Virus record (IMG/VR): IMGVR_UViG_2675903318_000021
Source: a virus
Lineage: Duplodnaviria > Heunggongvirae > Uroviricota > Caudoviricetes
Strand: one strand, 5' to 3'
DNA length: 36,403 nucleotides
The notes below the pieces were generated by a model, which made no database searches, was not told the DNA's origin, and was given only the letters and a program-made list of their open reading frames with translations. Both the position numbers and the translations under genes were made by a program. Position 1 is the first letter of the stretch, and each line of letters starts with the position of its first letter. Positions 2,648 to 35,048 of the stretch are shown piece by piece.

Positions 2648-3757
2648 TCACTCTGTTTCCGCTATCCATTCCGGGATTTTTGCCTCAAGCTCAAGCTGCG
2701 TGGTAAAGCCGCTGTTATCAATGGTGTGCTCGGCTTTTGCAATAATCCAGTCCTGATTATCAATCTCGCTTTTAAATCCTGTTACCGTGCCATGCATTTC
2801 GGGGTAGAGTTCTGCTCGTCCACGTGCCAGCGTGATGGAGAATGATGCGGCTCCGCGTTGTAGTTGTTGCCACTTTGCCGCCGCTGCGCGTCTTGCTGCC
2901 TGCTCGTTCTGATAAGTCTTGCGTAACACAAACACATTGCCTTCCGCGCCTTCCATATAATCACCTTCACGGCTGCTGCTTTTCTCTTTTTTCGGTTTTG
3001 GCGGTTTGCGGCGTTTCACGCTGACTTTTTTCTTTTTCCCGTAATTAAGATCAAGCCAGTAAGCGCGTACCCCCGTATACGCCTCGCGGTCAGCAATGCG
3101 GAACTGATGGCGATCGCCGCTGCTGCGTGTGATGGCGAACGATGGCAACGGCTGGCCCTGTGCGTTCACGCCACCGCCGGGCATGATGAATAACAGATTA
3201 CCGCTTTTTACCGTGGTGATTGCGCCCAGCATTTCCGCCATGCGCGTAAGGAAGGACATGTCACTTTCTTCGGTCTGGTCGGCGTGGTCGATTTCGATAT
3301 CCATCAGCATTTCGCTGATTTGCGGTTTCAGACCGTACCGATGAGCGATGGCGGATACCACACGCTCAACGGTCACATCATGCCAGGACACCTCACGTTT
3401 AACGTTAAATTCATCCCGAAAATCTGCGCTTCTGGCTGAAACAGTCAGCCTGTCCGGCGGTCCTTCGTGTGCGATTTCATCAACAATGTAAGAGCCTTTT
3501 TCTGTCAGCGGTTCGCCTTTCCAGCCAATGAGAACCGTCAGGCGCGCGCCCCGTGGCGGTAGCCGCAACTGACCATCCGCATCATCCAGCGTGATGGTGA
3601 GCTGGTCTGCCTCAAATCCCCGGTTGTCGGTCAGCGACAGGCTCATCAGGCGCTCTGCCACGCCGGACAGCGTTTTACCCTCCGCGAGAATATCAAAATC
3701 CGGCATTTTTACGGGGTCTGTGCCCTGACTGAGCAATTGCATGGTGGTGTCGGTCAT
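2648..3757 (-). CDS. D: phage late control / tail protein D (gpD-like)
   Basis: Translation from Met at 3757 (MTDTTMQLLSQG...) recognised as P2 gpD-like; GGGAGGG RBS upstream of this Met; ORF track extends spuriously to 3889. Confidence 0.85.
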   Translation of the reverse strand: MTDTTMQLLSQGTDPVKMPDFDILAEGKTLSGVAERLMSLSLTDNRGFEADQLTITLDDADGQLRLPPRGARLTVLIGWKGEPLTEKGSYIVDEIAHEGPPDRLTVSARSADFRDEFNVKREVSWHDVTVERVVSAIAHRYGLKPQISEMLMDIEIDHADQTEESDMSFLTRMAEMLGAITTVKSGNLLFIMPGGGVNAQGQPLPSFAITRSSGDRHQFRIADREAYTGVRAYWLDLNYGKKKKVSVKRRKPPKPKKEKSSSREGDYMEGAEGNVFVLRKTYQNEQAARRAAAAKWQQLQRGAASFSITLARGRAELYPEMHGTVTGFKSEIDNQDWIIAKAEHTIDNSGFTTQLELEAKIPEWIAETE

Positions 3758-3914
3758 CTGTTCCCTCCCTGTGCGGCATGGTCGCATGTGCGTGCGGAGG
3801 GGGTTACTGCTTTTTGTTGTCGCCGGGTCGGGAGAACGGCGCAGGGGTGAGATTACGCGCGTGGTGGGTGATGATTGTTGCCGAATCATTTAACGGATAC
3901 AAGGGGCTGAAGCT

Positions 3915-5099
3915 ATGAGTGAAACTCGTTTTCATGGTGCCCGTGTTACGGAAAATACCGACCTGGTAACAGCGATTAACGATGTTGATTCCAGCGTTAT
4001 CGGTATCGTGGCAACGGCGGATGATGCGGACGCGAAGCTGTTCCCGCTGAACAAGCCTACACTGCTGACCCGCGTCAATGACGTGCTGGGAAAATGCGGA
4101 ACAACGGGGACGCTTTATCGTGCGCTTAAGGCCATCGCAGACCAGGTGAGCACAAAGGTGATCGTCGTTCGCGTGGCTGAACACAAAGAAGAAGACGGTA
4201 AGACGCAGGATCAACTGGTTATCGGTGGTTCTGAGGATGACGGCAGCTATACGGGGATGTATGCGCTGCTTGTTGCAGAGCAGGATGAAAGCATCGGATA
4301 CCGTCCGCGTATTCTGGCCGCGCCGGAGCTGGACACGGAGGCGGTGACAAAATCCCTGTGCGTGATTGCGGGTAAACTGCGCGCGTTTGTGTATGCCACA
4401 TGTCATGGTTGTAACACGATGGCTGAGGCGATTACCTACCGCCAGAAATTCAACGAACGTGAGGTGATGCTCTTATGGCCTGACTTCATCGCCTACAACC
4501 CGAAAAGTGGCAAAAACGAAACGTTCCCCGCGCCTGCTTATGCGTGCGGCCTTCGTGCGTACATTGACCATGAGCAGGGCTGGCACAAATCGCTGTCCAA
4601 TGTTCCGGTTAAAAATGTGCTGGGAATGTCCAGGCATGTGTTCTGGTCGTTGCAGGCCGAAGACAGTGATGCCAACAGCCTCAATAACAAAGAAATCACG
4701 ACCATTATTCGTCGCAACGGGTTCCGCTTCTGGGGCAACCGCACACCGGAAACGAACGCCTACATCTTTGAGGTGTATACCCGAACCGCACAGGTGCTGG
4801 CTGATTCAATTGCGGAAGCGCAGTTTGAAACCATCGACAGTCCACTGACGCCTGCGAACGTGAAGGATGTTATCAGTGCCATCAGGGCAAAACTGGATTC
4901 GCTGGTTACTGCCGGGAAACTGATTGGTGCGGAGTGCTGGTATGACGTGGTGGATAACGGCACCACGGATTTACGTCAGGGACGTGTGCGTATTCGCTAC
5001 AAATATACGCCCGTTCCGCCACTGGAAGACATGGAGCTTTACCAGACGTTTACCGATGAATTCTTTGGTCCCGCATTTGCGGTGCTGGGAGGTGCCTGA
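3915..5099 (+). CDS. FI: contractile tail sheath protein (gpFI-like)
   Basis: 394-aa ORF; N-terminus and length match P2 FI-type sheath proteins; stop overlaps next start (ATGA). Confidence 0.9.
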   Translation: MSETRFHGARVTENTDLVTAINDVDSSVIGIVATADDADAKLFPLNKPTLLTRVNDVLGKCGTTGTLYRALKAIADQVSTKVIVVRVAEHKEEDGKTQDQLVIGGSEDDGSYTGMYALLVAEQDESIGYRPRILAAPELDTEAVTKSLCVIAGKLRAFVYATCHGCNTMAEAITYRQKFNEREVMLLWPDFIAYNPKSGKNETFPAPAYACGLRAYIDHEQGWHKSLSNVPVKNVLGMSRHVFWSLQAEDSDANSLNNKEITTIIRRNGFRFWGNRTPETNAYIFEVYTRTAQVLADSIAEAQFETIDSPLTPANVKDVISAIRAKLDSLVTAGKLIGAECWYDVVDNGTTDLRQGRVRIRYKYTPVPPLEDMELYQTFTDEFFGPAFAVLGGA

Positions 5100-5611
5100 T
5101 GGCTGTGCCAAAACATCTTCGCTTTTTTACGTTGTTTGTGGATGGTGAAAACGAAGTGGGCAAAGTGACATCCGTCACGCCGCCCAAACTGACGCGCAAA
5201 ACCGACAGCTATCGTGGTGGTGGCATGATGGGGGCGGTAAGTATTGATCTCGGTCTGGACGACTCCGCGCTTGATGCGAGTTTTGTTATGGGGGGAGCTG
5301 TTCGTGCGCTGTTCCTTAAATATGGCGGCACGATTGACGGCACGCTGCTGCGTTTTGCGGGTGAATACTACACCGATGCAGAAAGCGATCTGTATGAGAT
5401 CGAGATGCGCGGGCGTGTGACGGAAATTGATATGGGGGAAGCCAAACAGGGGGAAGCCACATCACACACTTACGCTGTCAAAAACACCTACTACAAGCTG
5501 AGCGTTAACGATCGCCCGCTGTGGGAAATCGACCTGTTGAACCACATCTACCGGAAGGACGGCAAGGACATTGTGCCTGACCGTATCCGTTCCGCGCTTG
5601 GGCTTGGCTGA
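5099..5611 (+). CDS. FII: tail tube protein (gpFII-like)
   Basis: 170-aa ORF immediately after sheath; P2 FII-like length and sequence. Confidence 0.88.
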   Translation: MAVPKHLRFFTLFVDGENEVGKVTSVTPPKLTRKTDSYRGGGMMGAVSIDLGLDDSALDASFVMGGAVRALFLKYGGTIDGTLLRFAGEYYTDAESDLYEIEMRGRVTEIDMGEAKQGEATSHTYAVKNTYYKLSVNDRPLWEIDLLNHIYRKDGKDIVPDRIRSALGLG

Positions 5612-5666
5612 TAAGTAATATGCAGGCGGCGCAGTGCGTCGCCTCTGACTGAAAAGGAGACAACTG

Positions 5667-6041
5667 ATGAAAGACATCGATACTGAAACCCGGAATAACA
5701 CCGTGGCGGATGATGTGACGGCAGGTGAGGATATGGCTGTCGAACGTGGCGTAAAACTGACCCGACCAATTGAGCGTGGTGGCGAAAAAATCACGTATGT
5801 GGAGATCACCGGGGCTATTGAGCAGGCTGGATCCCTGCGTGGTCTGTCGCTGTCTGATGTGCTGAATCTGAAAGCGGATACCATGTTTATGCTGTTGCCT
5901 CGCGTGACCTCGCCACGACTGGATGAAGTGATGATTAAAAAAATGTCGTCACGCGATTTTATTCAGTTGTGCGCTGTGGCTGTAAATTTTATGAGCGAGC
6001 CAGACTCTGGCGCGAAGAGCGTGCAGGAGACGGCAGCGTAA
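5667..6041 (+). CDS. E: tail assembly chaperone gpE-like
   Basis: 124-aa ORF with AAGGAG RBS, located between tube and tape-measure genes; gpE-like. Confidence 0.8.
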   Translation: MKDIDTETRNNTVADDVTAGEDMAVERGVKLTRPIERGGEKITYVEITGAIEQAGSLRGLSLSDVLNLKADTMFMLLPRVTSPRLDEVMIKKMSSRDFIQLCAVAVNFMSEPDSGAKSVQETAA

Positions 6042-6205
6042 TCACCCTGGTGTGCTTTGAGCACATCGAAGATCTGGTGGCGGATATTGCCGCCATTTTT
6101 AACTGGTCGCCCGCCGAAATCTTCATGATGACGCCCGGCGAAGTGGTTAGCTGGCGCGAGCGGGCGGCACTTCGCAGCGGGAATGCAGATAATGAAGACT
6201 CTTGA
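5984..6205 (+). CDS. E' extension, expected to be expressed as an E+E' fusion by -1 ribosomal frameshift (candidate slippery heptamer A_AAT_TTT at 5984-5990; alternative slip on the A7 run at 5937-5943)
   Basis: -1 frame is open from 5939 to 6205 and overlaps the 3' part of E and the start of T, as for the P2 E/E' pair; no independent start with RBS. Confidence 0.6.
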   Translation, partial: KFYERARLWREERAGDGSVITLVCFEHIEDLVADIAAIFNWSPAEIFMMTPGEVVSWRERAALRSGNADNEDS

Positions 6206-8999
6206 TATCCGGGTCGCTTTCAGCGCCGTTGACAGGCTGATCCGGCCTGCCGAAAACGCCCGCCGCCTGATGGGGCAGTTTGGTGACTCCATCCAGCGAA
6301 CGCAGGGGGCGATTAAAAATCTCGAGCGTCAGGCGCGTTCATTTGAGCGCGCCCGTGACGCTGTCAGTAAAGCGGATGCTGGCATCGTGAAAGCACGACG
6401 CCAGCTTAACGCCCTTAATCAGTTACAACGTACGGGTACAGTGCTCAGCGAAAAACAACAAAAGCTGATGCAGCAGTTAAGCACCCGGCTTGAACGCCTG
6501 AATGAATCGCGCACACGGGAAATTCAAAAAATGCGGGAGCTTGGCGGAGAGCTGAAACGCCACGGCATTTCCCTGACAGGCAGCGATAACACCATCCAGC
6601 AGGCCATCAGACGCACCGAACAGTACAACAACCAGCTTGAACGCGAACGGCAGGCGCTTGCGCGTGTAACGCGGGCGCGTGAGCGGTATTCGCGCGCGCA
6701 GGAAACAGCGGGAAAACTGAAAACAGGTGGTGCACTGGCAATTGGTGCGGCAGCGGCGGGCGGCTATGCTGCCGGGCGTTTTTTGCAGCCTGCGATCGGG
6801 TTCGGCAAAGAGATGTCCCGCGTTCAGGCACTGACGCGAATCGACAAAAACAGCCCGCAGTTTAAGGCGCTGCGTGAGCAGGCGTTAAAACTTGGATCTG
6901 AAACACCGTTTACTGCGAGTGATGCCGCCAGTGGGCAGAGCTTTCTGGCAATGGCTGGTTTTACTCCGCAGGCCATTCAGGCCGCATTGCCCGGTGTTCT
7001 TAATATGGCGCTGGCAGGTGGCGTCGAACTCGGCGAGACGGCTGATATAGGCTCCAATATCCTCACACAGTTCAACCTGACAGCCGATCAAATGGACCGG
7101 GTTGGCGATACGCTGACAGCGGCATTCACCCGGACCAATACTGATTTACGCGCGCTGGGCGAAACCATGAAGTATACCGGTCCGGTTGCCGCAAAACTTG
7201 GTATCAGTCTTGAAGAAGCGGCAGCCATGGCCGGGATGCTTGCCAGTAATGGTCTTCGTGGAAGCGATGCTGGTACGGCCATGCGCGCAAGTCTGTCCCG
7301 CCTTGCATCACCGCCAAAAGCTGCGGCTGATGCGCTGAAAGAGCTGGGGGTGTCAGTTGCTGACGCCAGGGGCAAAATGCGCCCGATGGAGGATGTGCTG
7401 CTTGATCTCTATAAGGCGACACAAAAATACGGACAGGTGGACCAGGTTTCCTTCTTCAAGGACATCGCCGGAGAAGAGGCGTTCGTTGGTTTGCAGACGC
7501 TTGTTGCGGCGGCTGGTTCAGGAGAGCTGCAAAAACTGACCAGAGAATTGCAGGGGGCAAGGGGAGAGGTCGATCGCGTCGCAAAAGTAATGGCCGATAA
7601 TCTTGATGGGGACCTGAAAAATCTCGACAGCGCATGGGAAGGTCTTCGTATTCGCATCAGTGATCTGGTTGACGGTCCGCTGCGTTCTGTCACGCAGTGG
7701 CTCACGCGGGTGCTTGAAAAAATCACCTCGCTGGCGCAGGCCCATCCGGTACTGACACGCCAGCTACTGATAGCAGGCGGTGCGTTGCTGGCAATGACTG
7801 CAACGATTCGCTCGTTGTCGCTGGTTATTGGGGTGCTTTACGGAAAGCTGGCCACCCTGCGTCTTGGTTTTGACATTCTTACCCGGTCAATGAATGTCGT
7901 CAGGGTGTTGCCTGCGCTGTGGGGAATGCTGACGGGTTCCGTTTCTTTGCTGGGAGGCGCTATCGGGGCGCTGTTCAGTCCGGTTGGTCTTATCGTGGCT
8001 GCGCTTGCCGGAGCTGCCGTTCTTATCTGGAAATACTGGGATCCCATCAGGGCATTTTTTGCCGGGGTGTTCAGCGGGATTATGGAAAGGCTGACCCCGT
8101 TGCGCGAAACCTTTGAACGGTTTGGCCCTGTTTTTGACGCAATCGGAAGCGGGATCAGCCAGGTGTTTAACTGGTTTAAATCGCTGCTGTCACCGATGGA
8201 GTCCAGCAAGGAAACGCTGGATAAATGTACCAGTGCTGGCGAGATATTCGGTAACGTTCTTGGCGGTGCGTTACAACTTGTTCTGACACCTGCAAAAATG
8301 CTACTGGATACGCTGGCGTGGATACTTGAAAAACTTGGCGTCCTTCCGGATGAAGCTGAAAGGGCGCGCAAGAAAATCGAAGACGCACAGCGTGCGGCCA
8401 TTCTTCGGGACAAGGTTGCCTTACTTCAGGGGGACCTGGCGAAAATCAATCCGCCGAAGCCTGTGGAAAATGGCAATGGCACCGGAGGTGATAAACCCAA
8501 AGACAACAAACCGCTCACAGACAGCAATACCGGGACGCTACGCAGACTCAGCAAAATTGCTGATAACACAGGTAAGCTGGTTGATGAGACGAAAAAACGC
8601 ATTGGCCCCGGCGATATTGTCTTTAAGAACCTGCCCCGCGCACTTGCTGTTCGTGGGGAGTGGCAGGAGCGGAAGATTGCGCAGGTCAGTAAGCCTGCCC
8701 CCGCAATTAATATCACCCCCGTGGTCCCGGCACCGCTGCCTCCGGCGCTGGTCCCTGTTGTTGCGGCCAGCTCCCGCCCGGTGGCGGAGGCCATACGATC
8801 TCCAGTGGCATCAGTTCCTGTAACTTCCCGTAACCGGGAGCCTGTTGCCTCCGGATTTGGTGGTGAAATTCATGTTCATCTGCATAACGTTGTTACGCAG
8901 AATCCCCGCGAACTGGCGAAACTGGTCGGTGAAATGGTCAGGGCAGAAATGGAACGGCGTGCCCGTGCCGGGCGTGGCAGTTTTTACGATAAAGATTGA
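6183..8999 (+). CDS. T: tail tape measure protein (gpT-like)
   Basis: 938-aa ORF, coiled-coil-rich N-terminus, hydrophobic central segment, position after E/E'. Confidence 0.9.
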   Translation: MQIMKTLDIRVAFSAVDRLIRPAENARRLMGQFGDSIQRTQGAIKNLERQARSFERARDAVSKADAGIVKARRQLNALNQLQRTGTVLSEKQQKLMQQLSTRLERLNESRTREIQKMRELGGELKRHGISLTGSDNTIQQAIRRTEQYNNQLERERQALARVTRARERYSRAQETAGKLKTGGALAIGAAAAGGYAAGRFLQPAIGFGKEMSRVQALTRIDKNSPQFKALREQALKLGSETPFTASDAASGQSFLAMAGFTPQAIQAALPGVLNMALAGGVELGETADIGSNILTQFNLTADQMDRVGDTLTAAFTRTNTDLRALGETMKYTGPVAAKLGISLEEAAAMAGMLASNGLRGSDAGTAMRASLSRLASPPKAAADALKELGVSVADARGKMRPMEDVLLDLYKATQKYGQVDQVSFFKDIAGEEAFVGLQTLVAAAGSGELQKLTRELQGARGEVDRVAKVMADNLDGDLKNLDSAWEGLRIRISDLVDGPLRSVTQWLTRVLEKITSLAQAHPVLTRQLLIAGGALLAMTATIRSLSLVIGVLYGKLATLRLGFDILTRSMNVVRVLPALWGMLTGSVSLLGGAIGALFSPVGLIVAALAGAAVLIWKYWDPIRAFFAGVFSGIMERLTPLRETFERFGPVFDAIGSGISQVFNWFKSLLSPMESSKETLDKCTSAGEIFGNVLGGALQLVLTPAKMLLDTLAWILEKLGVLPDEAERARKKIEDAQRAAILRDKVALLQGDLAKINPPKPVENGNGTGGDKPKDNKPLTDSNTGTLRRLSKIADNTGKLVDETKKRIGPGDIVFKNLPRALAVRGEWQERKIAQVSKPAPAINITPVVPAPLPPALVPVVAASSRPVAEAIRSPVASVPVTSRNREPVASGFGGEIHVHLHNVVTQNPRELAKLVGEMVRAEMERRARAGRGSFYDKD

Positions 9000-9005
9000 G
9001 GAGTC

Positions 9006-9500
9006 ATGGCCATGATGATGATCTACGGCATGTTTGTTTTTGAGCTGCGCACGCTGCCGCATCAGCAGTTACAGCAAAACAAAAGCTGGCGGCATGTGAA
9101 AAATGAACGCGTTAACCGTTCAGCAAGCTGGCAGTATATCGGTGCAGGTGATGATCGCATCGTTCTTTCTGGTGTGCTTTATCCTGAAATTACAGGTGGC
9201 GAAGTGTCGCTGTCGCTGCTGACCACGCAGGCGTATACAGGACGACCCTGGCCTTTGATTGATGGCGTCGGGCAGATTTACGGCATGTATGTCCTGACTG
9301 AAACGAATACGACCCGCTCCGAGTTTGATCGCTACGGTAAGGCGAAAAAGATAGAATTTTCACTGACTCTTGAACGCTGTGATGAGGATTTGCGGGAGCG
9401 CCTGCAATCCTCATCGTTCAGCGATATGTTGTCCGGCTTCAAAGATAAGGTGACATCATCCCTTAATAGCGCGGCCAGCTCAGTTAAGGGGCTGCTCTGA
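9006..9500 (+). CDS. U: tail protein gpU-like
   Basis: 164-aa ORF following tape measure with GAGGAG RBS; gpU-like. Confidence 0.85.
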   Translation: MAMMMIYGMFVFELRTLPHQQLQQNKSWRHVKNERVNRSASWQYIGAGDDRIVLSGVLYPEITGGEVSLSLLTTQAYTGRPWPLIDGVGQIYGMYVLTETNTTRSEFDRYGKAKKIEFSLTLERCDEDLRERLQSSSFSDMLSGFKDKVTSSLNSAASSVKGLL

Positions 9501-9656
9501 TTTAACGTATGTCGCCAATTTCCTGATGAAGGTGACTGGCGACTTGCTGTTGTATGTCCTTCTCAGAAAATTGTTTTTGAATAACAAATAACAGGATTTT
9601 ATAATCTCTTAACCTTATAACATGTGTGGTCTGAAATAATAATTAAGGAGATTTTC

Positions 9657-10229
9657 GTGCTGTCTTACTTAATGGCAATTCACTTTGTTTTATTTGGGAA
9701 CTCTACTAATTTAAAAAACTTCTGGAAACATGAAGTAATTCGGCGGAAACGTATGGATATCTGGAGGCTTTTAAGAGAGAAAAAGCAGCGTAACCGGAAT
9801 TTCCTTTTCTGGTGGCGGTTGGCTAACGAAATGTATATTAATGGTAATAAATTACATAAAAAAGCAGCCAAAAAGTTAAACAGTAAAATAATTAACAAAT
9901 TTGGTTGTGAAATAGGATTGGGAGCAAATATTGGAAAAGGGTTAACAATTCCCCATCATGCTGGAATTGTTGTTCATTTTGCTGTTGATGCAGGTGAAAA
10001 TCTGGTATTACGACAGAATACTACGATTGGACAGATAGATGGTGACATACCTGGTTCAAGAGTAAAAATTGGTAGTAACGTTGATATCGGAGCTAATTGT
10101 TGCATCATTGGATTATCACGTAAAATCGGGGATAATGTAAAAATAGGCGCAATGTCTTTTATAAATAAAGATATACCATCGAACTGCACATATATAACTA
10201 AAAAGAGCGGTGTTGTATTGTATAAATAG
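9657..10229 (+). CDS. hexapeptide-repeat (left-handed beta-helix) acetyltransferase, WcaB/CysE-like; cargo gene in the Z/fun-equivalent slot
   Basis: AT-rich ORF; AAGGAG RBS 6 nt before GTG at 9657 (ORF track starts at 9624); repeated [LIV]-G-x-x-x-x hexapeptide pattern (GCEIGLGANIGKG, IGSNVDIGANCCIIG, IGDNVKIGAMSFI). Confidence 0.7.
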   Translation: MLSYLMAIHFVLFGNSTNLKNFWKHEVIRRKRMDIWRLLREKKQRNRNFLFWWRLANEMYINGNKLHKKAAKKLNSKIINKFGCEIGLGANIGKGLTIPHHAGIVVHFAVDAGENLVLRQNTTIGQIDGDIPGSRVKIGSNVDIGANCCIIGLSRKIGDNVKIGAMSFINKDIPSNCTYITKKSGVVLYK

Positions 10230-10236
10230 AGCACAT

Positions 10237-10266
10237 AAAGCCATCGATATTTCTATCGATGGCTTT
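10237..10266. terminator. bidirectional hairpin terminator between acetyltransferase (+) and gene G (-)
   Basis: Perfect inverted repeat AAAGCCATCGATA-TTTC-TATCGATGGCTTT flanked by T runs. Confidence 0.7.
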
Positions 10267-10272
10267 TTCTTT

Positions 10273-10851
10273 TTATTGTGGGGCGACTGGCCACTCAATA
10301 TCCGCTGCTACTGTTGTATCAACACGATTCAACAATACCCGATATGTCTTCCATGCAGCCAGTAACGATGCCTCTTCTTCCGTCGCAATATCCAAATCTA
10401 CAGCATCCTGAAGTGGCGCAATATGCTCGCTAGCTACCTGCATCAGGCTGTTTTTTGTTTCTTCCGCCTCCTGGCTCCGAAACAGTTTTTCTGCTTCTGC
10501 ATCTTTCACCCAGGATGTACCGTTCCACTTCTGAAACTCCCCTTCCGGGGATAACCAGGTGACATTTTCCGGTAATGGGCCAAGTTCAGAAATAAATAAC
10601 GCGTCGCCGGAAGCCACGTCATAGACGGTATAACCCCGATGGTCTTCAACGAGATGCCACGATGCCTCATCAGTGTTGAAAACAGCCACGAAGCCAGCCG
10701 GAATATCTGGCGGTGCAATATCGGTACTGTTTGCAGGTAGACCTGTATGAGGTGGAATATATGCGTCACCGTCACCAATAAATTCATTAGTTCCGGCCAG
10801 CAGATTATAAATTTTGAGGGTTCGTGATTGTTTACTCATTCTGAATGCCAT
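10273..10851 (-). CDS. G: tail fibre assembly protein (gpG-like)
   Basis: 192-aa ORF directly downstream of the fibre gene with overlapping stop/start. Confidence 0.8.
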
Positions 10852-13121
10852 TATGCAAGCCTCACAATATAGTTAAATGCGATGTTTTTGACGGTGTTTT
10901 CCGCGTTACCAGCAGCGTTTACGGTGATGGTGTGTCCATGTGAGCCAATCGCAACGGAGTGCGTGTGTGCACCAATACCGACAGTGTGCTGATGAGAACC
11001 AATACCTACAGTATGAGAATGTGAGCCAGAGGAACCTGTTGTTGCTGATGTATATTGAGTTGCCAGACGCCCAGATGTCAGTGGAATTTTCCCCCACTGG
11101 TTTGCACCATCTGATGTTGGTATTGAATGCGTGTGACTCCCGGCGTTACTGGTAGTTTTGGTCCCATAGTCAAATAGTGAGGTTGTTTTCGTCCCGTAAT
11201 CAAACGACGATGTGGTTTTCGTACCCAAATCCGTACTGGATACGCTGGCGCTGTGGGTGTGCGATTTAATGCCGTCCTGTTCCTGAGACAATACGGCACG
11301 ACCACTGGCGGGCTTGCCCTTAATCGTCCAGCCACGCATATCAGGGATCACGCCTGACGGATAAGCGGCTGCAAGTTTCGGGTAGGCAGATTTGTCAAAA
11401 GTCTGCCCCTGCATCAGGGCATAACCAGACGGAACGGTATCTGATGGCCACGGGATTGGTGCACCGACTGGATAAAACTCTGCAGGAGGATGAGCCGAGG
11501 TGTAAAGCTGCGCCCACGGCGACCAGTTTGCGTCGGTCGTATCCCGTCGTGAACGAATAAATGCCGGAGCATGAGCACCGCTTGTACCACTCCAGCCGAT
11601 GAGTAACTCACCTTCGCCAACGGCTGTCATCCCTTTCAGGTGAATGATATTTCCATACGCTGTTGGATATCCGTTGTTATACACCTCGTATAACTCAAGA
11701 CCTGTTGCCCCCTGCGTATTGTCTGTCAGCGCGGTTACCTGACCTTTTGAAGCCAGATTAACTGATGATACTGCTGTTCCACCTGACGGTAACGCCCCGA
11801 TCTCTGATGCCGTTGGCTTATTTCTGGAGTTATAGTCCCTTCGCCAGCCAGGTGAATAATCTGTTCCGTGATTAATATAGGTAAACTGGGCGTTAGTTGT
11901 TCCACCACCAGTGGAGGTGGTCGGTGTGGTAATGCGGATCGTCATCGCTGACTTTATCCCCATTACTTCAATGACAGCTCCGGCGAGATGAATATTACCG
12001 CAGTCAGTATCAGTAATGATTTTATTATTGCCATAAGACCAGGAACCCTTGCACATCCAGTATGGATGGTTAAATGCTCCCTGAGAATCCAGCCACTCGA
12101 TAAACTGTGCAGTCGTCCAGTTTCCTGTTGTTGTGCTTACTGACCCACCGAAGGCACGGCAGGCACCAATATTTTTCGTAAAGGTGTCTTTGCCAGGGAT
12201 ATCCGCACCGTTCTGATCTTTCTGCAGACGTTTCTCAGCATTGTCATAGGCTGTTTTTACTGCCTTTGGTGTCGCGGCAAGCGTTTCAGATGTGCTGTTG
12301 GTCGCGCTGCTTAGCTGGATTATCCCTTTCTGTGCTGTTGTTGCATCCTGTGCGGTGTATTTCCCGTTAGCCAGGTCATAGGCTGCCTTTACCGCCTTTG
12401 GTGTTGCCGCCAGCGTTTCTGAATCGCTGTTGGTGGCGCTACTGAGCTGGACAATGCCTTTTCGCGCTGTAGTGGCGTCCTGTGCGGTATATTTCCCGTT
12501 AGCAAGGTCATAGGCTGCCTTGACCGCTTTCGGCGTTGCGGCCAGTGCTTCAGACGTGCTGTTGGTGGCGCTACTGAGTTGAACAAAGCCTTTTGCGGTC
12601 AGCGAGGCGTCCGGGTGACGTCGTGACTGTTCATGTTCTTTCAGTTTGTCATTCACGTAATCCACTGTGGCCATAACCATGGTGTTATCCACGGTAAGCG
12701 CCACGGTGGCAGTGCTGGATACGGTCAGAATGGTGCGAAATGTTTGTGCACGTCCGGATCCTTCGGCAACGGCTGGCTTGTAACTTTCGGCAGTATTGCC
12801 CACCGCGATCAAATCGCCGTGCTCATCAAATACACCAATTTCCCGGATCCAGAATCCGCCCGTTTCAGGAGGAATAACCAGCTCCGCAATAATGCGGTTC
12901 TGATGTGTTGCGTCCAGGATGACGCGATTAACAGTATGTCGCCACACCTCATGCACCAGACGGGTCTGCTTACTGTCTGGTGTGGGCAACGTGCCGCCAC
13001 CGTCGCCCACGGCCATGTGAGTCAGGTGGACAGGATTACCATCTGGCGCGGCTGCCTGAGCTAATTTTTTGGCACCAGTATCAGTGATAATGGTTTTAAA
13101 TTTTCGTGTTGTGGTACTCAT
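10851..13121 (-). CDS. H: long tail fibre protein (gpH-like) with internal tandem repeats and His-rich C-terminal repeats
   Basis: 756-aa ORF; conserved P2 H-like N-terminus; three 44-aa tandem repeats; C-terminal HTHS/HxH and [10 protein letters not shown] repeats. Confidence 0.85.
12243..12620. repeat. three tandem ~132-bp repeats inside the tail fibre gene (encode 44-aa repeat VQLSSATNS...[10 protein letters not shown])
   Basis: Direct visual alignment of three consecutive units starting at about 12243, 12375 and 12507. Confidence 0.8.
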
Positions 13122-13123
13122 GC

Positions 13124-13654
13124 TTAATCGTCCGGATAAATGGTAATGACTTCACCGTCGTAAGTTGCTGCCGCCGCGAAAATATCCCCCGGGATCTCCT
13201 GAATGATATTCAGCCCTGTCATGTGGCGGCTGACCGGGCGGGCATCAGCAATCAACCGCTCCATTTCCAGATACATTTCCTCCGTCACGCCACTGTCCAG
13301 CGTGCCGACTTCAACGGTAAATGTTCCCGGTTCTCCGCCGAACTCCCACCACTCAGACACACGAATGAGGTATCCCAGCGGCTCAATGGCCCGGCGCAGT
13401 GCGCTGATGGTCCCTTTGTGTCGGTGTATCAGCCATGCATCACGAATAACCTGTCGCTTTGTCTCTTCCGGCCAGTTGCGATCCCAGCGGTCAACGGAAA
13501 ATGCCCAGGCGAGATAAGGCAGCAGATGCACCGGGCAGGTGTCCGGCGACCACAGCGTGTTGAGGTCTACCGGAATGTCTGTAATGCGCGTTCCGACAGC
13601 TTCGGCACAACGCATGAAATTGCTGGCTGATGGCGGTAACAGTGAATTACTCAT
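13124..13654 (-). CDS. I: baseplate protein gpI-like
   Basis: 176 aa from Met at 13654 (ORF track start 13687 would overlap J by 41 nt); position between J and H. Confidence 0.8.
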
Positions 13655-14543
13655 TACGCCCACCTTCGCTGATGGTGAATGACTCACAGCGCGCCGCCTG
13701 TATGTCGCTGATGGCCATATTCTGTGTGGGTTCGATTATCTCCACGCGTTGCACACCGTGCACATGCAGTGCGGCAGCAATGGCTGACAACGCCACGTCC
13801 TGACCGATAAGCCCCTGCTCAGACAGCCACTTCCTGAACGACGATTCCGCCGCGGCCAGAATAGGTTCGGATTCCGGGCCGGGGTAAAAGTACAGTTTTG
13901 CATTCAGCCGCCATGTCACGATTCTGGCGCTCTGTACAGTAAGGCGGTCGGCCACCGGGCGGGTATCCTCTGCATTCAGAACAGCGCGAACGGTATTAAG
14001 CAACGCCTCCGTTGCTGTGCCGTCGCCCTCTGTGGACAGGATGGAAACCGTCACACAGGCCGGAGACGGGCTGATGGCCCGCGCATCACGCACCAGACCG
14101 CTGGCGCTGCGTGCAAAATACTCGTATGCGCCTGACGGGCCTGCAACACTCAGGCCGTCATACGCCCGCTGCGCCCGCAGTCTCAGCGAGGTGTCGCTCT
14201 CCATCACCGCGTCGGTGGTACCCGTTGCCGGAGTGATAACCAGGCGCTTTGTGTTCATATTGCCCGCGAGGTTGTCCAGGTTTGTCCCTGAACCGTGGCT
14301 TAACATGCAGGCGCGTGCGCCCTCGTTAACCCGCTGGCGTAACAGCATTTCACGAAACGACATGGTTTGAGCGATAACGTTAAGGGGTTCCGATTCCAGC
14401 TCCAGCGCGGCGGAAACGGCTTCACGCTGTTCGGCGGGATAGGACGCAATCATCATGGCCTTTGTGTCAGCCAGAATTGCCTCAAAGTCAGGCTCCGCGA
14501 TGATGGCGGGTTCCGGTAACTGGGAAAGGTCAACGGCAGGCAT
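13647..14543 (-). CDS. J: baseplate J-like protein
   Basis: 298-aa ORF, P2 gpJ-like size and position. Confidence 0.85.
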   Translation of the reverse strand: MPAVDLSQLPEPAIIAEPDFEAILADTKAMMIASYPAEQREAVSAALELESEPLNVIAQTMSFREMLLRQRVNEGARACMLSHGSGTNLDNLAGNMNTKRLVITPATGTTDAVMESDTSLRLRAQRAYDGLSVAGPSGAYEYFARSASGLVRDARAISPSPACVTVSILSTEGDGTATEALLNTVRAVLNAEDTRPVADRLTVQSARIVTWRLNAKLYFYPGPESEPILAAAESSFRKWLSEQGLIGQDVALSAIAAALHVHGVQRVEIIEPTQNMAISDIQAARCESFTISEGGRNE

Positions 14544-14546
14544 GAT

Positions 14547-14897
14547 TTACTCTCTCAGCGTGATGGTTAATTCAACATTCTGCATGGTCTGCATGACAGT
14601 GCCCGACAGCGTCACCCCGGCGCGGCCTCCTGCCTTCCAGACAACGTCGATGGCGTCCAGGGCAATGCGGGGTTCCCATCGTGTCAGTGCAATCACGGCA
14701 GCGCTCATGCATTGCAGACGCGTGGTGTTATTCATGGGTTCGTCAATCAAATCAGGCACAAGGCTGCCATATTCCCGTCGCATAACCCGGCTTGCCAGCG
14801 GGGTGGTCAGGATGTCCCTGACTGACTGTTTCAGGTGCTCCATATCGTTCAGGTTTCCCGTTCCGTCCGGATTCATTCCTGTGTAGCGGGTTGTCAC
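14547..14897 (-). CDS. W: baseplate protein gpW-like (gp25/W family)
   Basis: 116-aa ORF between V and J. Confidence 0.8.
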   Translation of the reverse strand: MTTRYTGMNPDGTGNLNDMEHLKQSVRDILTTPLASRVMRREYGSLVPDLIDEPMNNTTRLQCMSAAVIALTRWEPRIALDAIDVVWKAGGRAGVTLSGTVMQTMQNVELTITLRE

Positions 14898-15475
14898 TGC
14901 GGGCCTCCTGTCGAATCGCTGCCACCTTTAACGCCACCGTGCTTATGCGTATGCACTGTGATGCCGTTTGAGGTGAAATCGCCGCCACTGTGCGTGATAT
15001 TGCCGCTCATCTTTCCCCCTTTTGTGACGTCAATCTCGGCTGTTTTCAGAAGGTTTGTGCATTCCACGACGGGCGTATCCAGTTTCACGCTGACGGATGC
15101 CTGCAAAGTGGCCGTTTTCATGCCGCTGGCACTCAGTGCGCCTGCGTCCGCGTCGTAGCGGAACACCGCGCCGTCCGGCGCGCTGACCACGATTTCTTTC
15201 AGGCTTTTGCCGGGTGCCGGACTGGCATCACTCCACAGGCTGCCAATTATCATGGCGGTTTCCGGGTTGCCGCCAATGCAGGCAATTACCACCTGTTCGC
15301 CGGGTGATGGCGGCAGCCACACATTGAAGGCTCCCGCGCGCGTGGTGTTCCAGCGCAACCAGCCTGTTTCCAGTTCGCCGCTGCGAACGCGCACGCACCA
15401 GGACTTCTCATCAACTTCAGAGATAATCCCGGTGCGGATGATGTTGCTCAGCAGTCGCATGAGTTCTGCGCTCAC
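14894..15475 (-). CDS. V: baseplate spike/assembly protein gpV-like
   Basis: 193-aa ORF, Gly-rich C-terminus, position upstream of W. Confidence 0.8.
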   Translation of the reverse strand: MSAELMRLLSNIIRTGIISEVDEKSWCVRVRSGELETGWLRWNTTRAGAFNVWLPPSPGEQVVIACIGGNPETAMIIGSLWSDASPAPGKSLKEIVVSAPDGAVFRYDADAGALSASGMKTATLQASVSVKLDTPVVECTNLLKTAEIDVTKGGKMSGNITHSGGDFTSNGITVHTHKHGGVKGGSDSTGGPQ

Positions 15476-27346: not shown

Positions 27347-30147
27347 TTTCCACTGGTCAGGCCACCCCGCAGCAGGTCTGCTTTGCGGCGGGCACGTTCA
27401 GTGGTTTCACTGATTCTCTGTGCGTGCTCTGCGTCGCGGATGGCGCGCAGCATGTCAGAAAGCACGGTAACGGGTGTTTTCATGGTGTTCTGGTCCTGCT
27501 GAAGTGTGGATGCCAGGCGTGTGGCGGCTTCAGGGTCTGATGCCCCCAGCTGTGCCAGATAGCTGGCGACCGGGTTATGGCGGATCTCCGTGCTGCTTAC
27601 ACCGTGATTACGGCTCAGGCGCTGCCAGAGCTGCGTGATTCGGCTGTCCGGGCGGGTATCCGGTTTGCGTACAATTTCAAATCCCTGCGGTGCAATGATG
27701 CTGCCGTCAACGTACAGACTGCCGCCCCGTAACAGGTGCTGCATTTGTTGTTCACCGATATGCAGGCCGAGAGATTCAGCAGACTCCCGCCATTCTCTAG
27801 CGAGTAATTCGTGGTTATCAGGCAAAGGCCGCTGCTGTTTGCGGCTCTGTGTCCAGCTCTGCATTTCATCACTGCTGTTTTTTGCCTGTTTGTCACGAAG
27901 CGAACGCATCAGCGCCCGGCGTTCGTGCCGTTTCAGTGAGCGCACCCATTCATCCACATCAACGCCGTCAGGAAGCTGCGGCCACGGTGCTGGCCGTTCT
28001 TCCGGCTGTTCTGTCCCGTTGTTGTCCGTTTCCTGTACACGGGGACAGTTATTGCCACGAGTCCAAGGGGCGGCAGGGCCGCCCTGAAGGTCAAAACCAT
28101 TTTCGCGGGCGCTGTCTTCCGCTTCCGGTTTACGTCTTACCAGCTTCCAGTTATCCGGATGCGTGCACACACGGGAGGATTCCCCGATGAGCGGCGACCA
28201 GATCCCGTAAATCTGTACACTCTGTTCGCCGTAATCGTTCAGCTCATCTGCGAGGTCGTAGGCGGTGCGAATCAGGTAGTCTTTGCGTGGAACAAGTACG
28301 CCGCCCTGTTTCTCTATGTAGGTGGCAAAACATCCGGCATCAGCGGCAGCGAGTACCGCATCCATTGCGTCATCCTTCAGCCGTTGCGGGCCTTCCGGGT
28401 TGCGTGCCATCTGGCTGGCAAGGCGGCGGAGTTCACGCCACACCTGACGGGAGGGGATACCAAAGAACTGGAACTGGCGGACACGGTGAAGGCGCGCCCA
28501 GCCGATGGCGCGTTCCACGCTCTCGGCCATTGATTTTCCGGTTTCGTGGTCAACGCGTGGCTTGCCCGTTTTCGGGTCGATGCCATCCACGGCGCGGCTG
28601 TCTAGGTTCTTTCCGATGTAGGTGGCGATGTAGCTGGTTGGCGTACCTTTTGAGCCGTCGACGTACTCCGCCTTAAAGCGTGGGGTAATATCATCACCCA
28701 GCTCGTGACGATCTTCCTGAATGGCAATATCGCGGGTGTGGGACACAATGGTGTCGATTTCTTCCGGATGAGCAAAGACCATCATATGCCAGTGCACGGT
28801 GCCGTCATGGTGAGGCTCCACCGTGCGGATGCCATACCAGCGCAGGCCGTCGCGGTTCAGTTTCTTGCGGACCGCCGCAAAAAACGTGTTAACCAGGTAA
28901 TCGCTGGAGTCGCGCATGGTGGCTCCGTTCCATTTGGGATTCGGATGACCGTTCTCTGTTGTGGCGTGGTATTTTGACGGGCAGGTGACAGTCAGAAACA
29001 CCGCTTTGTCGCCACGGGCTTCGGCCAGAAGTTCCAGCCCCTTCATGGTGGCCATCATTTCTGCCTTACGGTGAACCGGGTTACTTACTCCCGCGTAATA
29101 CACTGTTTCGAGATCAATCGTGAACCCGTCTTCGTTTTCCAGCATAAAACTTTTCAGGAAATCGCGTGTTTTCTCGCGCTGTGCGCGAAACTCGCTTAAC
29201 GCGTCCTGGCTCAGATAGGGTGATGTTTTTCTGGAAACCAGACAGGCGGCGCGGAGTTGTTCTTCTCTCCACTCGCAACGTAACAGCCACAGTTTGCGTT
29301 TCCACCATTCCGCACAGGTCAGGCGAAGGATTGCGCCCGGCAGCAGCTCCGTGTCCGGTTCGTTCCTCCGGTCTTTGTCTGTTGTCAGTGCGTCATAATG
29401 TGGAGGCATGGCGTGCAGGTGTAACGCCATGCGGGCCAGCATCTGATACGCCTTCAGCGTTACATCCATGGTCAGTTCGCCATCAGTCGCGCCAAAGCCA
29501 TCGCAGAGTTTTTCGAAGGTGCTGCTGAACATCGCCGCCGTCATGGTGGCCAGCGTCTGTATCTGGTGTTTGTTGAGCTGCGGCAGGTAAAGCAAATCGT
29601 CCAGGCGTTCGCGTCCGGCAAGGGAGCGATAACCCGGTGTCAGCCAGCGGCTGTCGGTGCGGTCCAGACGTTCGAATATTTTGCGCAGGGTTCCGCGTGC
29701 ATAGCGTTCCGCCTGCCAGCTCTTTTTGCCTTTCTGACGATCGGCTTCCTGCTTCTTGCGCAGGAAAGAGAGGTGGCGGCTCAGAGGTTCTCGCAGATAA
29801 ACGGGAAGCGCCTTCAGTGTGGCAAAGGCACGGGCCACCGGGTCTTGTTCTGTTGCCCGGCGCTTACTGATGATGCTCTGTGCCAGCTTTTCACGCTGTC
29901 CGGCTTCCTCAAGGGATGCCATGAGTTTTTTACCCATGGCGGATTGTGCGAAAAAGGCTTCCTCCTTCGCTTCCTGTTCTTCCCGGGCCTTTTTGTCCGC
30001 CTCAAGGTAGTAACGGATGGCGCGTTGCAGGTCGGTTTCAGTTTCCTGCCTGTGCTCCGTAAATCTGGCCGGATCAATGGCTGGCCGTGGTTCATTCCAG
30101 CTCCATGCAAACTCACTCATGGCTGGTATCCTGTCACGCGCTGCCAC
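27280..30147 (-). CDS. A: replication initiation endonuclease gpA-like (HUH rolling-circle initiator)
   Basis: About 950-aa ORF with HUH-type motif VHWHMMVF and Tyr-rich YIATYIGK segment; more likely start is the Met at 30120, which overlaps the upstream gene stop (ATGA). Confidence 0.85.
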   Translation of the reverse strand: MAARDRIPAMSEFAWSWNEPRPAIDPARFTEHRQETETDLQRAIRYYLEADKKAREEQEAKEEAFFAQSAMGKKLMASLEEAGQREKLAQSIISKRRATEQDPVARAFATLKALPVYLREPLSRHLSFLRKKQEADRQKGKKSWQAERYARGTLRKIFERLDRTDSRWLTPGYRSLAGRERLDDLLYLPQLNKHQIQTLATMTAAMFSSTFEKLCDGFGATDGELTMDVTLKAYQMLARMALHLHAMPPHYDALTTDKDRRNEPDTELLPGAILRLTCAEWWKRKLWLLRCEWREEQLRAACLVSRKTSPYLSQDALSEFRAQREKTRDFLKSFMLENEDGFTIDLETVYYAGVSNPVHRKAEMMATMKGLELLAEARGDKAVFLTVTCPSKYHATTENGHPNPKWNGATMRDSSDYLVNTFFAAVRKKLNRDGLRWYGIRTVEPHHDGTVHWHMMVFAHPEEIDTIVSHTRDIAIQEDRHELGDDITPRFKAEYVDGSKGTPTSYIATYIGKNLDSRAVDGIDPKTGKPRVDHETGKSMAESVERAIGWARLHRVRQFQFFGIPSRQVWRELRRLASQMARNPEGPQRLKDDAMDAVLAAADAGCFATYIEKQGGVLVPRKDYLIRTAYDLADELNDYGEQSVQIYGIWSPLIGESSRVCTHPDNWKLVRRKPEAEDSARENGFDLQGGPAAPWTRGNNCPRVQETDNNGTEQPEERPAPWPQLPDGVDVDEWVRSLKRHERRALMRSLRDKQAKNSSDEMQSWTQSRKQQRPLPDNHELLAREWRESAESLGLHIGEQQMQHLLRGGSLYVDGSIIAPQGFEIVRKPDTRPDSRITQLWQRLSRNHGVSSTEIRHNPVASYLAQLGASDPEAATRLASTLQQDQNTMKTPVTVLSDMLRAIRDAEHAQRISETTERARRKADLLRGGLTSGNKKQTETGFTNPVNEQKTRRDI

Positions 30148-33948: not shown

Positions 33949-34353
33949 ATGAAAAATGATATTGGTCAGCGGTTGCGTGAGGAAAGGGAAAGATTGGGAC
34001 TTAGTCAAGTTGCCATGAGCGACATTGGTGGAGTCAAAAAGCTAACTCAGCTTAGATATGAGAAAGGAGATAGCTTTCCTGATGCTGCGTATTTGGCAGC
34101 GCTGTCTCGTTTTGGCCTTGATGTTCAGTATGTTGTGTTGGGAATTCACTCACCTGAAACTTATAACGATGATGAGCAGGAGTTGATTACTCGCTTTCGA
34201 GCAGCTTCGTTAGATGTGAAAAACGCGGTGATTGGGGCTTTAAAAGGTGCGATCAGTGAAAAGGAAACTCAGCCATCAGGACGTGAGTTAAATATTTCTG
34301 GTGGTAATAACCGTATCGCTGGTCGTGACTATAACGAAACTAAGGGTAGGTGA
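33949..34353 (+). CDS. HTH_XRE-family repressor (immunity repressor candidate, C/CI-like)
   Basis: 134-aa ORF; N-terminal IGQRLREERERLGLSQVAMSDIGGVKKLTQLRYEKG is a canonical XRE-type HTH; divergent from RHH gene and co-oriented with int. Confidence 0.7.
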   Translation: MKNDIGQRLREERERLGLSQVAMSDIGGVKKLTQLRYEKGDSFPDAAYLAALSRFGLDVQYVVLGIHSPETYNDDEQELITRFRAASLDVKNAVIGALKGAISEKETQPSGRELNISGGNNRIAGRDYNETKGR

Positions 34354-34368: not shown

Positions 34369-35019
34369 ATGGCCGTCAACTCAAACGGTTCAAACAATCG
34401 CGTTGCTGGGCGTGATTTTCACGAAAAGAATATTCAGATAGAGCGATATGATGGTTCTCATACTGTCAATATCGCAATCCCTTCGAATAATGATGATGAC
34501 GATCGCCCTTTGCTTAAGGCTCAGCGTAAGGAGCTAAATAGCTTGGTTGCTGCTATTGCAGAAGCTAGCAATACTGAAGCGTTTATTATTTGGCAAAAAG
34601 TACATGCGGAGATTGGTGTAGCTGGTATTGATGATATGACAGTAAATCAATATAAAACAGCGGAGAGTTTTCTGCATGCAATGCTTGAGCGATGTAAAGA
34701 TCATGATGCCTGTAAGGCTCTTGTAAGTTTATTACTACGTAACAGTGAAGACTGTGGACTTCGACAAAAACTTCTGCGGTATTGCCATATCAATTTCGGT
34801 ACAGGACGTTTAAACGATCTTACTCGTTCTCAGTTACAGTCTGCATTGTCGTGGTTAGAGCAACAATCGGCATCAAGCCACACAGAGAGTTCGACCTTAC
34901 CAGAAGTCCGACTTCGTGCTTCAGAATTAATCCGACTTTATCCAAAAGAAATAATATTCTTTATCTGCGTAGGGGTTTTGGTAGGCGGTGTCATTTCTAG
35001 GGCGTTTTTTAATTTGTAA
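34369..35019 (+). CDS. hypothetical protein with C-terminal transmembrane anchor; N-terminus repeats a motif found at the repressor C-terminus
   Basis: 216-aa AT-rich ORF with GGGAGG RBS after three consecutive in-frame stops; C-terminal IIFFICVGVLVGGVI helix; N-terminal NNRVAGRDFHE vs repressor NNRIAGRDYNE. Confidence 0.6.
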   Translation: MAVNSNGSNNRVAGRDFHEKNIQIERYDGSHTVNIAIPSNNDDDDRPLLKAQRKELNSLVAAIAEASNTEAFIIWQKVHAEIGVAGIDDMTVNQYKTAESFLHAMLERCKDHDACKALVSLLLRNSEDCGLRQKLLRYCHINFGTGRLNDLTRSQLQSALSWLEQQSASSHTESSTLPEVRLRASELIRLYPKEIIFFICVGVLVGGVISRAFFNL

Positions 35020-35048
35020 TCTTACTTGAGCTAAATTGAGGTAATGAT

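Follow-up and report, generated by a model that had tools for sequence, protein, structure and literature searches.

A beta-helix acetyltransferase gene carried in an exchangeable tail fibre cassette of a P88-like prophage, and its possible role in lipopolysaccharide modification

The acetylation of surface glycans by phage-borne enzymes is already known from Oac and GtrC (PMC7067206; PMC9558356), from NeuO (PMC3046976) and from the Acinetobacter prophage enzyme Atr (PMC6586298). This article concerns a gene in the IMG/VR virus record IMGVR_UViG_2675903318_000021, a stretch of Caudoviricetes DNA of 36,403 nucleotides (the whole of which is called the window below), encoding an acetyltransferase and lying between the tail gene U and a tail fibre assembly gene. 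A preliminary examination of the letters alone, the sequence-only reading, had treated it as cargo of a P2-like phage. The explanation preferred here, whose chances of being right or wrong we hold to be about equal, is that it encodes a lysogenic-conversion enzyme which O-acetylates a sugar of the lipopolysaccharide (LPS), probably of the core, and which possibly masks the receptor of the phage fibre.

NeuO of prophage CUS-3 is the nearest functional precedent: a cytoplasmic beta-helix O-acetyltransferase, encoded by the prophage and dependent on acetyl-CoA, whose substrate is a surface glycan of the lysogen (PMC3046976). NeuO however belongs to another beta-helix subfamily and was absent from the PDB sequence hits of the window protein at E ≤ 0.01. 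It is also phase-variable by means of heptanucleotide repeats, whereas no such repeats were seen in the window gene, and its acceptor is the K1 capsule (polysialic acid), while that of the window protein is a putative LPS sugar. Oac, GtrC and OafA offer a likeness in outcome, being agents of lysogenic conversion by which temperate phages acetylate LPS and bring about superinfection exclusion (PMC7067206; PMC9558356). These are integral membrane acyltransferase-3 proteins of an unrelated fold which act on the periplasmic side (PMC9558356), in contrast to the window protein, which is predicted to be soluble and to act on the cytoplasmic side. The family to which the window protein belongs differs from these known phage acetyltransferases in its fold subfamily, which is that of serine acetyltransferase (SAT) and WcaB, in a target that is probably the core and not O-antigen or capsule, and in its carriage on exchangeable, sometimes invertible, host-range cassettes.

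The gene lies in an open reading frame (ORF) at 9624–10229 on the plus strand. A GTG start at 9657 is backed by the NCBI PGAP annotation of 100%-identical Escherichia coli records, giving a gene of 573 nt and a protein of 190 aa; the identical E. coli product is WP_000954201.1, with the database name "serine O-acetyltransferase". The homologue search returned 335 homologues at E ≤ 1e-5, the best at E = 1e-120. The protein also matched phrog_2154 (E = 1.2e-86; residues 13–190 against profile positions 3–181 of 185), which is annotated "unknown function". The best NCBIfam matches were EpsC (6.7e-21), CysE (1.4e-16) and WcaB (1.9e-14), all of them below cut-off. EpsC (NF041874) scored 74.7 bits against a curated cut-off of 150, CysE 60.9 against 210.65 (TIGR01172) and 36 against 397 with the longer model (NF008349), and WcaB 52.6 against 194.65 (TIGR04016) and 53.4 against 196 (NF007564). 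The Pfam Hexapep model scored 23.6 bits, slightly under its 27-bit cut-off, and most homologues carry precomputed PF00132/PF14602 hits.

An AlphaFold2 model (pLDDT 96.4) has five N-terminal helices (residues 2–82) followed by a left-handed beta-helix (approximately residues 85–180); both the model and the residue counts given here are based on 107 aligned family members. Foldseek matched beta-helix enzymes at a probability of 1.00, with serine acetyltransferases as the top PDB structural matches (query-normalised TM-score 0.70–0.76, 19–28% identity). His100 aligns with the catalytic base of CysE, His158, and is histidine in 106 members; Glu85 aligns with its catalytic partner, Asp143, and is aspartate or glutamate in every member; the equivalent of the pocket residue Gln178 is glutamine in 106. 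The protein is a left-handed beta-helix (hexapeptide) acetyltransferase of the SAT/WcaB-like branch. Given the conserved catalytic residues and the fold, it is predicted to be a competent acetyl-CoA-dependent O-acetyltransferase, and from its sequence the gene is almost certainly functional as such. The sequence-only reading had proposed a beta-helix acetyltransferase of the WcaB/CysE type, which the profile search and the model bear out, and had named in advance the absence of catalytic residues on alignment as grounds for giving the proposal up; those residues are present.

Among characterised E. coli proteins WcaB is the closest, at 31% identity as against 23% for CysE. WcaB and the window protein are of the same superfamily branch and share a short helical N-terminal domain, the beta-helix and an HH motif at the catalytic histidine. 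WcaB is soluble and is thought to act in the cytoplasm on colanic acid intermediates linked to undecaprenyl pyrophosphate, and the same mechanism is proposed for the window protein. The two differ in that the window protein falls far short of the WcaB cut-off and has motifs of its own, the family-specific conserved motifs being FWWRLANE, IRQNTTIG and IGAMSFINKDIP. Furthermore, wcaB is found in the wca cluster of K-12, whereas the window gene stands alone on phages and plasmids.

The gene is under purifying selection. Pairwise comparison of alleles from seven contexts gave ratios of nonsynonymous to synonymous substitution (dN/dS) of 0.04–0.19, with nearly all replacements within the first ~60 residues and a beta-helix domain that is essentially invariant. 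It is carried by 530 of 5426 complete E. coli genomes, in 533 chromosomal and 66 plasmid places. Such prevalence, together with the homologues and the low dN/dS, shows that it is not a chance ORF. Among viral contigs and annotated records the gene is complete in all of the approximately 66 close copies except four, which are cut by a contig end or an insertion sequence (IS) (L156, L161, L172 and L173). Alleles at least 97% identical were found in strains of serogroups O157, O111, O103, O45 and O121, and most O157:H7 records among the matches carry the gene. In O157:H7 strain JEONG-1266 (L019, 2849–11207) it is retained intact in a prophage remnant where IS30 has truncated D, a frameshift interrupts the tape measure gene and an IS3 fragment has taken the place of H; this copy has 97.2% nucleotide identity to the window allele and a dN/dS of 0.04 against it.

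The neighbouring genes of homologues were considered in approximately 40 gene contexts. Four chromosomal homologues sit with LPS or polysaccharide genes. In Leminorella grimontii the order is GT4, GT8, waaY, waaZ, acetyltransferase and then a convergent waaL, in a block of 25–33% GC. The WaaZ of this block is 65% identical to that of K-12, and the order mirrors waaJ-waaY-waaZ-waaU/waaL of K-12 with the acetyltransferase in the position of waaU. A pair formed by a waaZ homologue and the acetyltransferase occurs also in a Halomonas genome, beside a UDP-glucose dehydrogenase gene (the coordinates of the two pairs being L034, 2428–5815, and L043, 3010–4393). Halopseudomonas oceani has hldE, an msbA-like exporter gene and the acetyltransferase followed by a nonulosonic-acid locus, and in a Pseudomonas species the acetyltransferase is 1.5 kb from wbpA/B-like genes. 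Within prophages, a GT25 "LPS biosynthesis" gene (123 bits) begins 59 bp after the acetyltransferase in Xenorhabdus bovienii, and a GT9 heptosyltransferase-like gene (32.6 bits, cut-off 22) follows it in Morganella; in both cases the two-gene cargo is convergent with a tail fibre gene (L196/L197, 6001–8653; L195, 4867–8520). None of the homologues in the inspected contexts was found in a cys, wca, capsule or enterobacterial common antigen (ECA) cluster. The lipid A–core oligosaccharide is made the best candidate acceptor by the waaZ, waaY, waaL, GT9, GT25 and hldE/msbA neighbours, and from these gene contexts an LPS-related glycan is a plausible acceptor, with the case for and against it in balance. 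The proposal that a surface polysaccharide might be modified and a receptor masked has thereby gained gene-neighbourhood support from LPS genes, the acceptor and the masking being putative. As a separate observation, hicAB toxin-antitoxin genes are located just upstream in the Morganella prophage and in Citrobacter phage phiNP.

The second recurring association of the family is with tail fibre genes. Hidden Markov models (HMMs) were built for the acetyltransferase family and for the fibre assembly proteins and used in a scan of 193 loci, a match of at least 180 bits being taken as family-level and clustering of the acetyltransferases at 80% identity giving 35 groups. In 11–12 of these clusters a fibre assembly gene converges on the acetyltransferase gene from no more than 100 bp downstream. 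Clusters only 36–45% identical to the window protein share this synteny (Hafnia phage yong2, E. coli phage vB_EcoM-613R2, Citrobacter phage phiNP and IMG/VR loci L190–192), so the linkage to the fibre is old and goes beyond recent hitch-hiking. The partner assembly proteins share 33–80% identity among themselves, in a pattern that follows the relatedness of the acetyltransferases only in part, and in a Buttiauxella prophage the acetyltransferase is convergent with the fibre gene itself. Other members of the family were located at prophage ends, next to integrases, as chromosomal orphans and on plasmids. Lone cargo homologues of ~50% identity occur on the bfp (EAF) plasmids of enteropathogenic E. 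coli, where they follow the bfp pilus operon at a distance of a few kb, and others of this kind were located on an IncFII plasmid and, beside a relaxase gene, on a Pseudomonas plasmid (L012–L016, 6001–6594; L200, 6001–6810; L025, 1549–2154). The family is therefore not restricted to phages.

The borders of the unit that is exchanged in E. coli were located by pairwise blastn. Similarity to the P88 backbone ends at 9506, six bases past the stop codon of U, and resumes at ~12256–12385 inside H (the whole of which is 10851–13121), which indicates a joint exchange of the acetyltransferase gene, the assembly gene and the portion of H that encodes its C-terminus. The region 9665–11476 is 88% identical to P1-like phage-plasmid JL22, and to Ro157c2YLVW as far as 11506; in both of these U and tfa flank the acetyltransferase, which falls within the invertible C segment associated with cin. 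Over 9575–11472 there is 96% identity to a third myovirus prophage, not of the P2 type and located near yfhH (L022), and this homology starts two bases 5' of the −35 hexamer of a predicted promoter. The cassette so defined is ~1.9 kb and comprises promoter, acetyltransferase gene, terminator, fibre assembly gene and fibre tip. In E. coli the acetyltransferase always co-transfers with the assembly gene and the fibre tip, and by sequence comparison these three move as one cassette among P88-like, P1-like and other myoviruses. Lambdoid phages (mEp460_ev081, PhiR42_1, PhiR26_1 and others) match 10287–12462 at ~95% identity, with side tail fibre genes. Fibre modules thus cross between myovirus and siphovirus lineages, and since the lambdoid homology begins only at 10287, the acetyltransferase moron proper can be placed at ~9575–10286.

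The window is a complete prophage next to pgsA and the tRNA-Gly/Cys/Leu genes, with the integrase at its right end. It had been taken for a P2-like phage, but its closest relatives are the P88-like Peduoviridae (Xuanwuvirus/Gemsvirus) Shae_phiSM, 500465-2, 503458 and P88. The genes FI-FII-E-T-U (3915–9500, plus strand) are inverted relative to V-W-J-I-H-G (10273–15475, minus strand), while D (2648–3889), ogr and a hok/gef-like toxin gene are on the minus strand to the left of FI. As a result of this inversion relative to P2, it is U and not FI that abuts the slot. Equivalence to the slot of Z/fun in P2 stands in so far as the gene, like fun(Z), is the next one downstream of the assembly gene G and faces it across a terminator. 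It does not stand for the other flank, which is U in place of FI, nor for the gene itself, as BLASTP of Fun(Z) against the acetyltransferase found no homology (best E = 6.5). The placing of the gene between U and the assembly gene was correct, and it was likewise rightly described as a single AT-rich gene with its own ribosome-binding site (RBS) and a perfect hairpin terminator. The expectation that this slot holds Z/fun-type genes does not apply to the closest relatives. In Shae_phiSM, 500465-2 and P88 it is occupied by a DNA invertase gene and an opposed second set of fibre tip and assembly genes (L004, 9175–11642; L005, 4363–6384; L006, 6861–9565), which is an invertible host-range segment. 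Nor did the gene enter the slot by an insertion of its own; the module that brought it in took the place of the assembly gene and of the C-terminal portion of H as well.

The arrangement recalls the invertible C segment (cin) of P1 and G segment (gin) of Mu, as in JL22 and Ro157c2YLVW the acetyltransferase is flanked by the two assembly genes that oppose each other in the C segment, and as an equivalent cassette with an invertase occupies the place of the window gene in the P88-like relatives. The window prophage differs in having a fixed fibre, with neither an invertase nor a second fibre set. A search for the gix/cix-like core AAACCNNGGTTT with one mismatch allowed gave a single match in the window, at 1221, far from the locus and at chance level, which is no evidence for a remnant of an invertase recombination site near the locus.

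The gene is set apart from its surroundings by composition and by transcription signals (Table 1). Its GC content is 0.335–0.338, against 0.48–0.59 in the tail genes upstream and 0.45–0.56 in the fibre genes downstream. The RBS lies six bases 5' of the GTG codon, and both are unchanged in four independent genomic contexts. The promoter-like site, TTGAAT-17-TATAAT, has 10 of 12 matches to the sigma-70 consensus, from which it is predicted, and is identical in the O157 and O111 copies, while the P1-like copies have another and stronger promoter-like site, TTGACA-18-TAAAAT, with 11 of 12 matches. Downstream, the hairpin at 10237–10266 has a perfect 13-bp stem and a 4-nt loop (−20.3 kcal/mol, z −5.1, with none of 200 shuffles as stable), and the T-run TTCTTTTTAT directly 3' of it completes the terminator unit. 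A second hairpin begins just 3' of the stop codon of gpU, with a core stem at 9511–9517/9537–9543 and a U-rich stretch after it; the fold of 9470–9575 is −34.9 kcal/mol (z −3.1, 1 of 200 shuffles as stable), and it is probably the terminator of the FI-U tail operon. The acetyltransferase gene is therefore insulated on both sides. A moron is recognised by a promoter and terminator of its own and by a composition unlike that of its flanks, and all of these were found here, the promoter as a consensus prediction.

Table 1. Features of the acetyltransferase locus and adjoining genes in the window
Feature	Position	Strand	Evidence
gpU tail protein, at the end of the inverted FI-U operon, outside the cargo	9006..9500	+	Pfam Phage_P2_GpU, 5.5e-39
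Hairpin, putative tail-operon terminator	9503..9552	+	RNA fold; P88-like backbone homology stops at 9506
Predicted sigma-70-like promoter	9577..9605	+	Consensus match
RBS AAGGAG	9645..9650	+	Read from sequence; invariant in four contexts
Acetyltransferase gene, 190 aa, PHROG 2154	9657..10229	+	ORF, profiles, model
Intrinsic terminator between the convergent acetyltransferase and fibre assembly genes	10237..10276	+	Stem, T-run, fold
Tail fibre assembly (chaperone) gene, gpG/Tfa equivalent	10273..10851	-	Pfam Caudo_TAP, 6.7e-41
Tail fibre gene H, 3' end, encoding the receptor-binding part of the fibre	10851..11476	-	C-terminal ~208 residues: collar domain and His-x-His-rich tip

Taken together, these data suggest the following mechanism. 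The self-contained moron would encode a soluble, probably trimeric, acetyl-CoA-dependent O-acetyltransferase that would be expressed independently of the late operons of the phage, presumably in the lysogen. A soluble beta-helix enzyme must use acetyl-CoA in the cytoplasm, and the enzyme would thus O-acetylate an LPS sugar on the cytoplasmic face of the inner membrane during assembly of the glycolipid. Its substrate, if it behaves like WcaB and NeuO (PMC3046976), would be a glycolipid intermediate that has yet to be exported. The surface of the lysogen may then become a poor receptor for phages with such a fibre, which could result in superinfection exclusion or in fewer progeny being lost on debris. 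Masking of the receptor is suggested by the permanent linkage of the acetyltransferase to fibre tip and chaperone. Among the receptors of the Tfa-dependent fibres of P1, P2 and Mu, the LPS core is a common one. It is proposed tentatively that the function under selection is to mask the receptor used by the linked fibre, a possibility less likely than the acetylation of LPS itself. The wider proposal, that PHROG 2154 consists of widespread cytoplasmic LPS-core O-acetyltransferases carried inside myovirus host-range cassettes, including the invertible segments of P1-like phages, such that fibre specificity and receptor masking are exchanged as a unit, is doubtful.

A number of observations weigh against the reading of the gene as an LPS-core acetyltransferase that masks a receptor. 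To our knowledge, O-acetylation of the LPS core of E. coli has not been described. The window gene itself stands alone, outside any LPS operon and without a partner glycosyltransferase, and about half of the contexts inspected (orphans, plasmids and sites near integrases) are uninformative. The lambdoid phages carry the fibre tip without the acetyltransferase, and in one pair a 77%-identical assembly gene accompanies an acetyltransferase of only 36% identity. The link to receptor specificity is for these two reasons a loose one, and strict co-variation of acetyltransferase and fibre type is not supported, on the same two observations. The region downstream of tail fibre genes is moreover a general hotspot for added genes, and the synteny could come from insertion bias together with co-transfer. 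With regard to expression, the promoter is a consensus match only, and H-NS may silence a gene of 33% GC. The literature yielded neither data on expression or phenotype for the gene nor a functional study of the family. The gene has been noticed before and left unexplained. It is named sacF in the JL22 paper, the only one to discuss it, where its role is called unknown (PMC9603915), and the phiNP homologue is listed as "fitness" cargo in a paper on a Citrobacter rodentium prophage (PMC6456863). An O157 proteome paper makes no mention of the protein.

It is also conceivable, if unlikely, that the enzyme acts on another envelope glycan (colanic acid, ECA, O-antigen or capsule) and that the benefit is one of host fitness by way of immune evasion, biofilm formation or resistance to unrelated phages. 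The closest characterised relative in E. coli, WcaB, is after all an enzyme of colanic acid, the known prophage acetyltransferases target capsule or O-antigen (PMC3046976; PMC6586298; PMC7067206), one Pseudomonas and one Halopseudomonas homologue are beside O-antigen or nonulosonic-acid genes, and the solo copies on virulence and IncF plasmids suggest a benefit directed to the host. However, the partners waaY/waaZ/waaL, GT9, GT25 and hldE/msbA point to the core and not to capsule, and no homologue examined is in a wca, capsule or ECA cluster. The near-identical alleles, at least 97% identical, span all five of the serogroups named above. O157, O111, O103, O45 and O121 have unrelated O-units. 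An acceptor specific to one O-unit is consequently unlikely, and the candidate of an O-antigen-specific acetyltransferase was set aside on this account.

The remaining explanations dispense with surface glycans altogether. If the database name were correct, the protein would be a genuine serine O-acetyltransferase, a feedback-free auxiliary metabolic gene product that, in the lysogen or in the course of infection, would raise O-acetylserine and cysteine or activate the CysB regulon. A resemblance to serine O-acetyltransferases had been raised by the sequence-only reading as well; we consider this explanation improbable. PGAP and all source names give serine (O-)acetyltransferase, and the best PDB matches by sequence and by structure are serine acetyltransferases, although their dominance is due in part to there being no WcaB-type structure among the matches. 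CysE (EC 2.3.1.30) and the window protein have the same overall fold (at the TM-scores given above), the His158/Asp143 dyad and Gln178 are conserved, and the loss of the C-terminal tail would abolish both cysteine feedback and CysK binding. In E. coli CysE, L-serine and L-cysteine are bound by Asp92, Asp157, Arg192 and His193, and catalysis involves His158 and Asp143 (PMC9547175). The segment bearing Asp92 is missing from the family; the position of Asp157 is Pro in 48 members, Ala in 16 and Gly in 9, with Asp outside the seven commonest residues; Arg192 is matched by Arg in 22 members, and the position of His193 is deleted or variable. The window protein is also shorter than CysE (190 against 273 aa) and ends in ...SGVVLYK ~10 residues past the beta-helix, with none of the CysK-binding, Ile-terminated feedback tail of CysE, and C-termini in the family are short and variable. 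Its score is less than a third of the TIGR01172 cut-off, and in the contexts inspected its neighbours are LPS or phage fibre genes and never cys genes. The lack of the residues that bind serine makes this option unlikely, and a true serine acetyltransferase was rejected on active-site grounds; judged from sequence, the protein is in all likelihood something else, and "serine acetyltransferase" is probably an over-annotation. Similarly improbable is the acetylation of a small molecule, be it an antibiotic, a bacteriocin or a toxic metabolite, or a defence or counter-defence role with no relation to surface glycans. Like resistance or defence cargo, the gene is a lone mobile one on phages, plasmids and islands in several bacterial orders; defence hotspots include the slot of the Z/fun type in P2 and, in phage ESSI2_ev040, the site next to an Abi gene; and other beta-helix enzymes detoxify chloramphenicol, streptogramins and sugars. 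Against this, a scan of the protein with PADLOC defence models matched no family at E ≤ 1, we know of no xenobiotic-modifying members of the fold subfamily with the N-terminal helical domain, and this reading would not account for the recurrence of waaZ, GT25, GT9 and fibre genes as partners. Least credible by far is the idea that the gene is a neutral passenger, silent or in decay and simply carried along with the fibre cassette. It would agree with the AT-rich and possibly H-NS-silenced state of the gene and with its constant co-transfer with assembly gene and fibre tip in E. coli, but not with the low dN/dS, with its intactness in hundreds of genomes, degraded prophages included, or with the active site kept across 107 diverged members.

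The immediate consequence of these results is that ~10% of complete E. coli genomes, including O157:H7, O111, O103, O45 and O121 strains, as well as P1-like phage-plasmids, carry a gene that probably has the wrong functional label. Should the LPS core prove to be acetylated as proposed, the enzyme would be the first of the soluble beta-helix type from a phage for which modification of that structure has been shown. The same ~10% of genomes would then have an unrecognised acetyl modification of the core, an unnoticed chemotype in pathogens that would be relevant to host range in phage therapy, to phage typing and possibly to serum or antimicrobial-peptide resistance. The linkage within the cassette suggests that phages may exchange "key and lock-cover" together, and the partnerships with waaZ, GT25 and GT9 yield concrete hypotheses for the acceptor.

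Some further features of the prophage were observed outside the locus. A gene for a ParM/StbA-type plasmid partition ATPase (26244–27203) adjoins the gpA replication gene (27280–30147), and the O157 remnant has the same ParM/StbA-gpA pair along with a "plasmid partitioning/stability" gene, which is unusual in an integrated P2-type phage. Two small genes at 34369–35396, between a repressor-like helix-turn-helix gene (33949–34353) and the integrase (from 35402), may be cargo at a second classic accessory slot; one has no Pfam match and the other is a DUF2511 gene. The gpD ORF (2648–3889, minus strand) encodes 413 aa, a length as in phage 500465-2. In RefSeq a strain identical over the acetyltransferase locus has a gpD of 266 aa and a pseudogene fragment, which is probably a problem of start-site annotation and not decay. 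The same strain has an IS3 insertion near the tRNA genes that is absent from the window.

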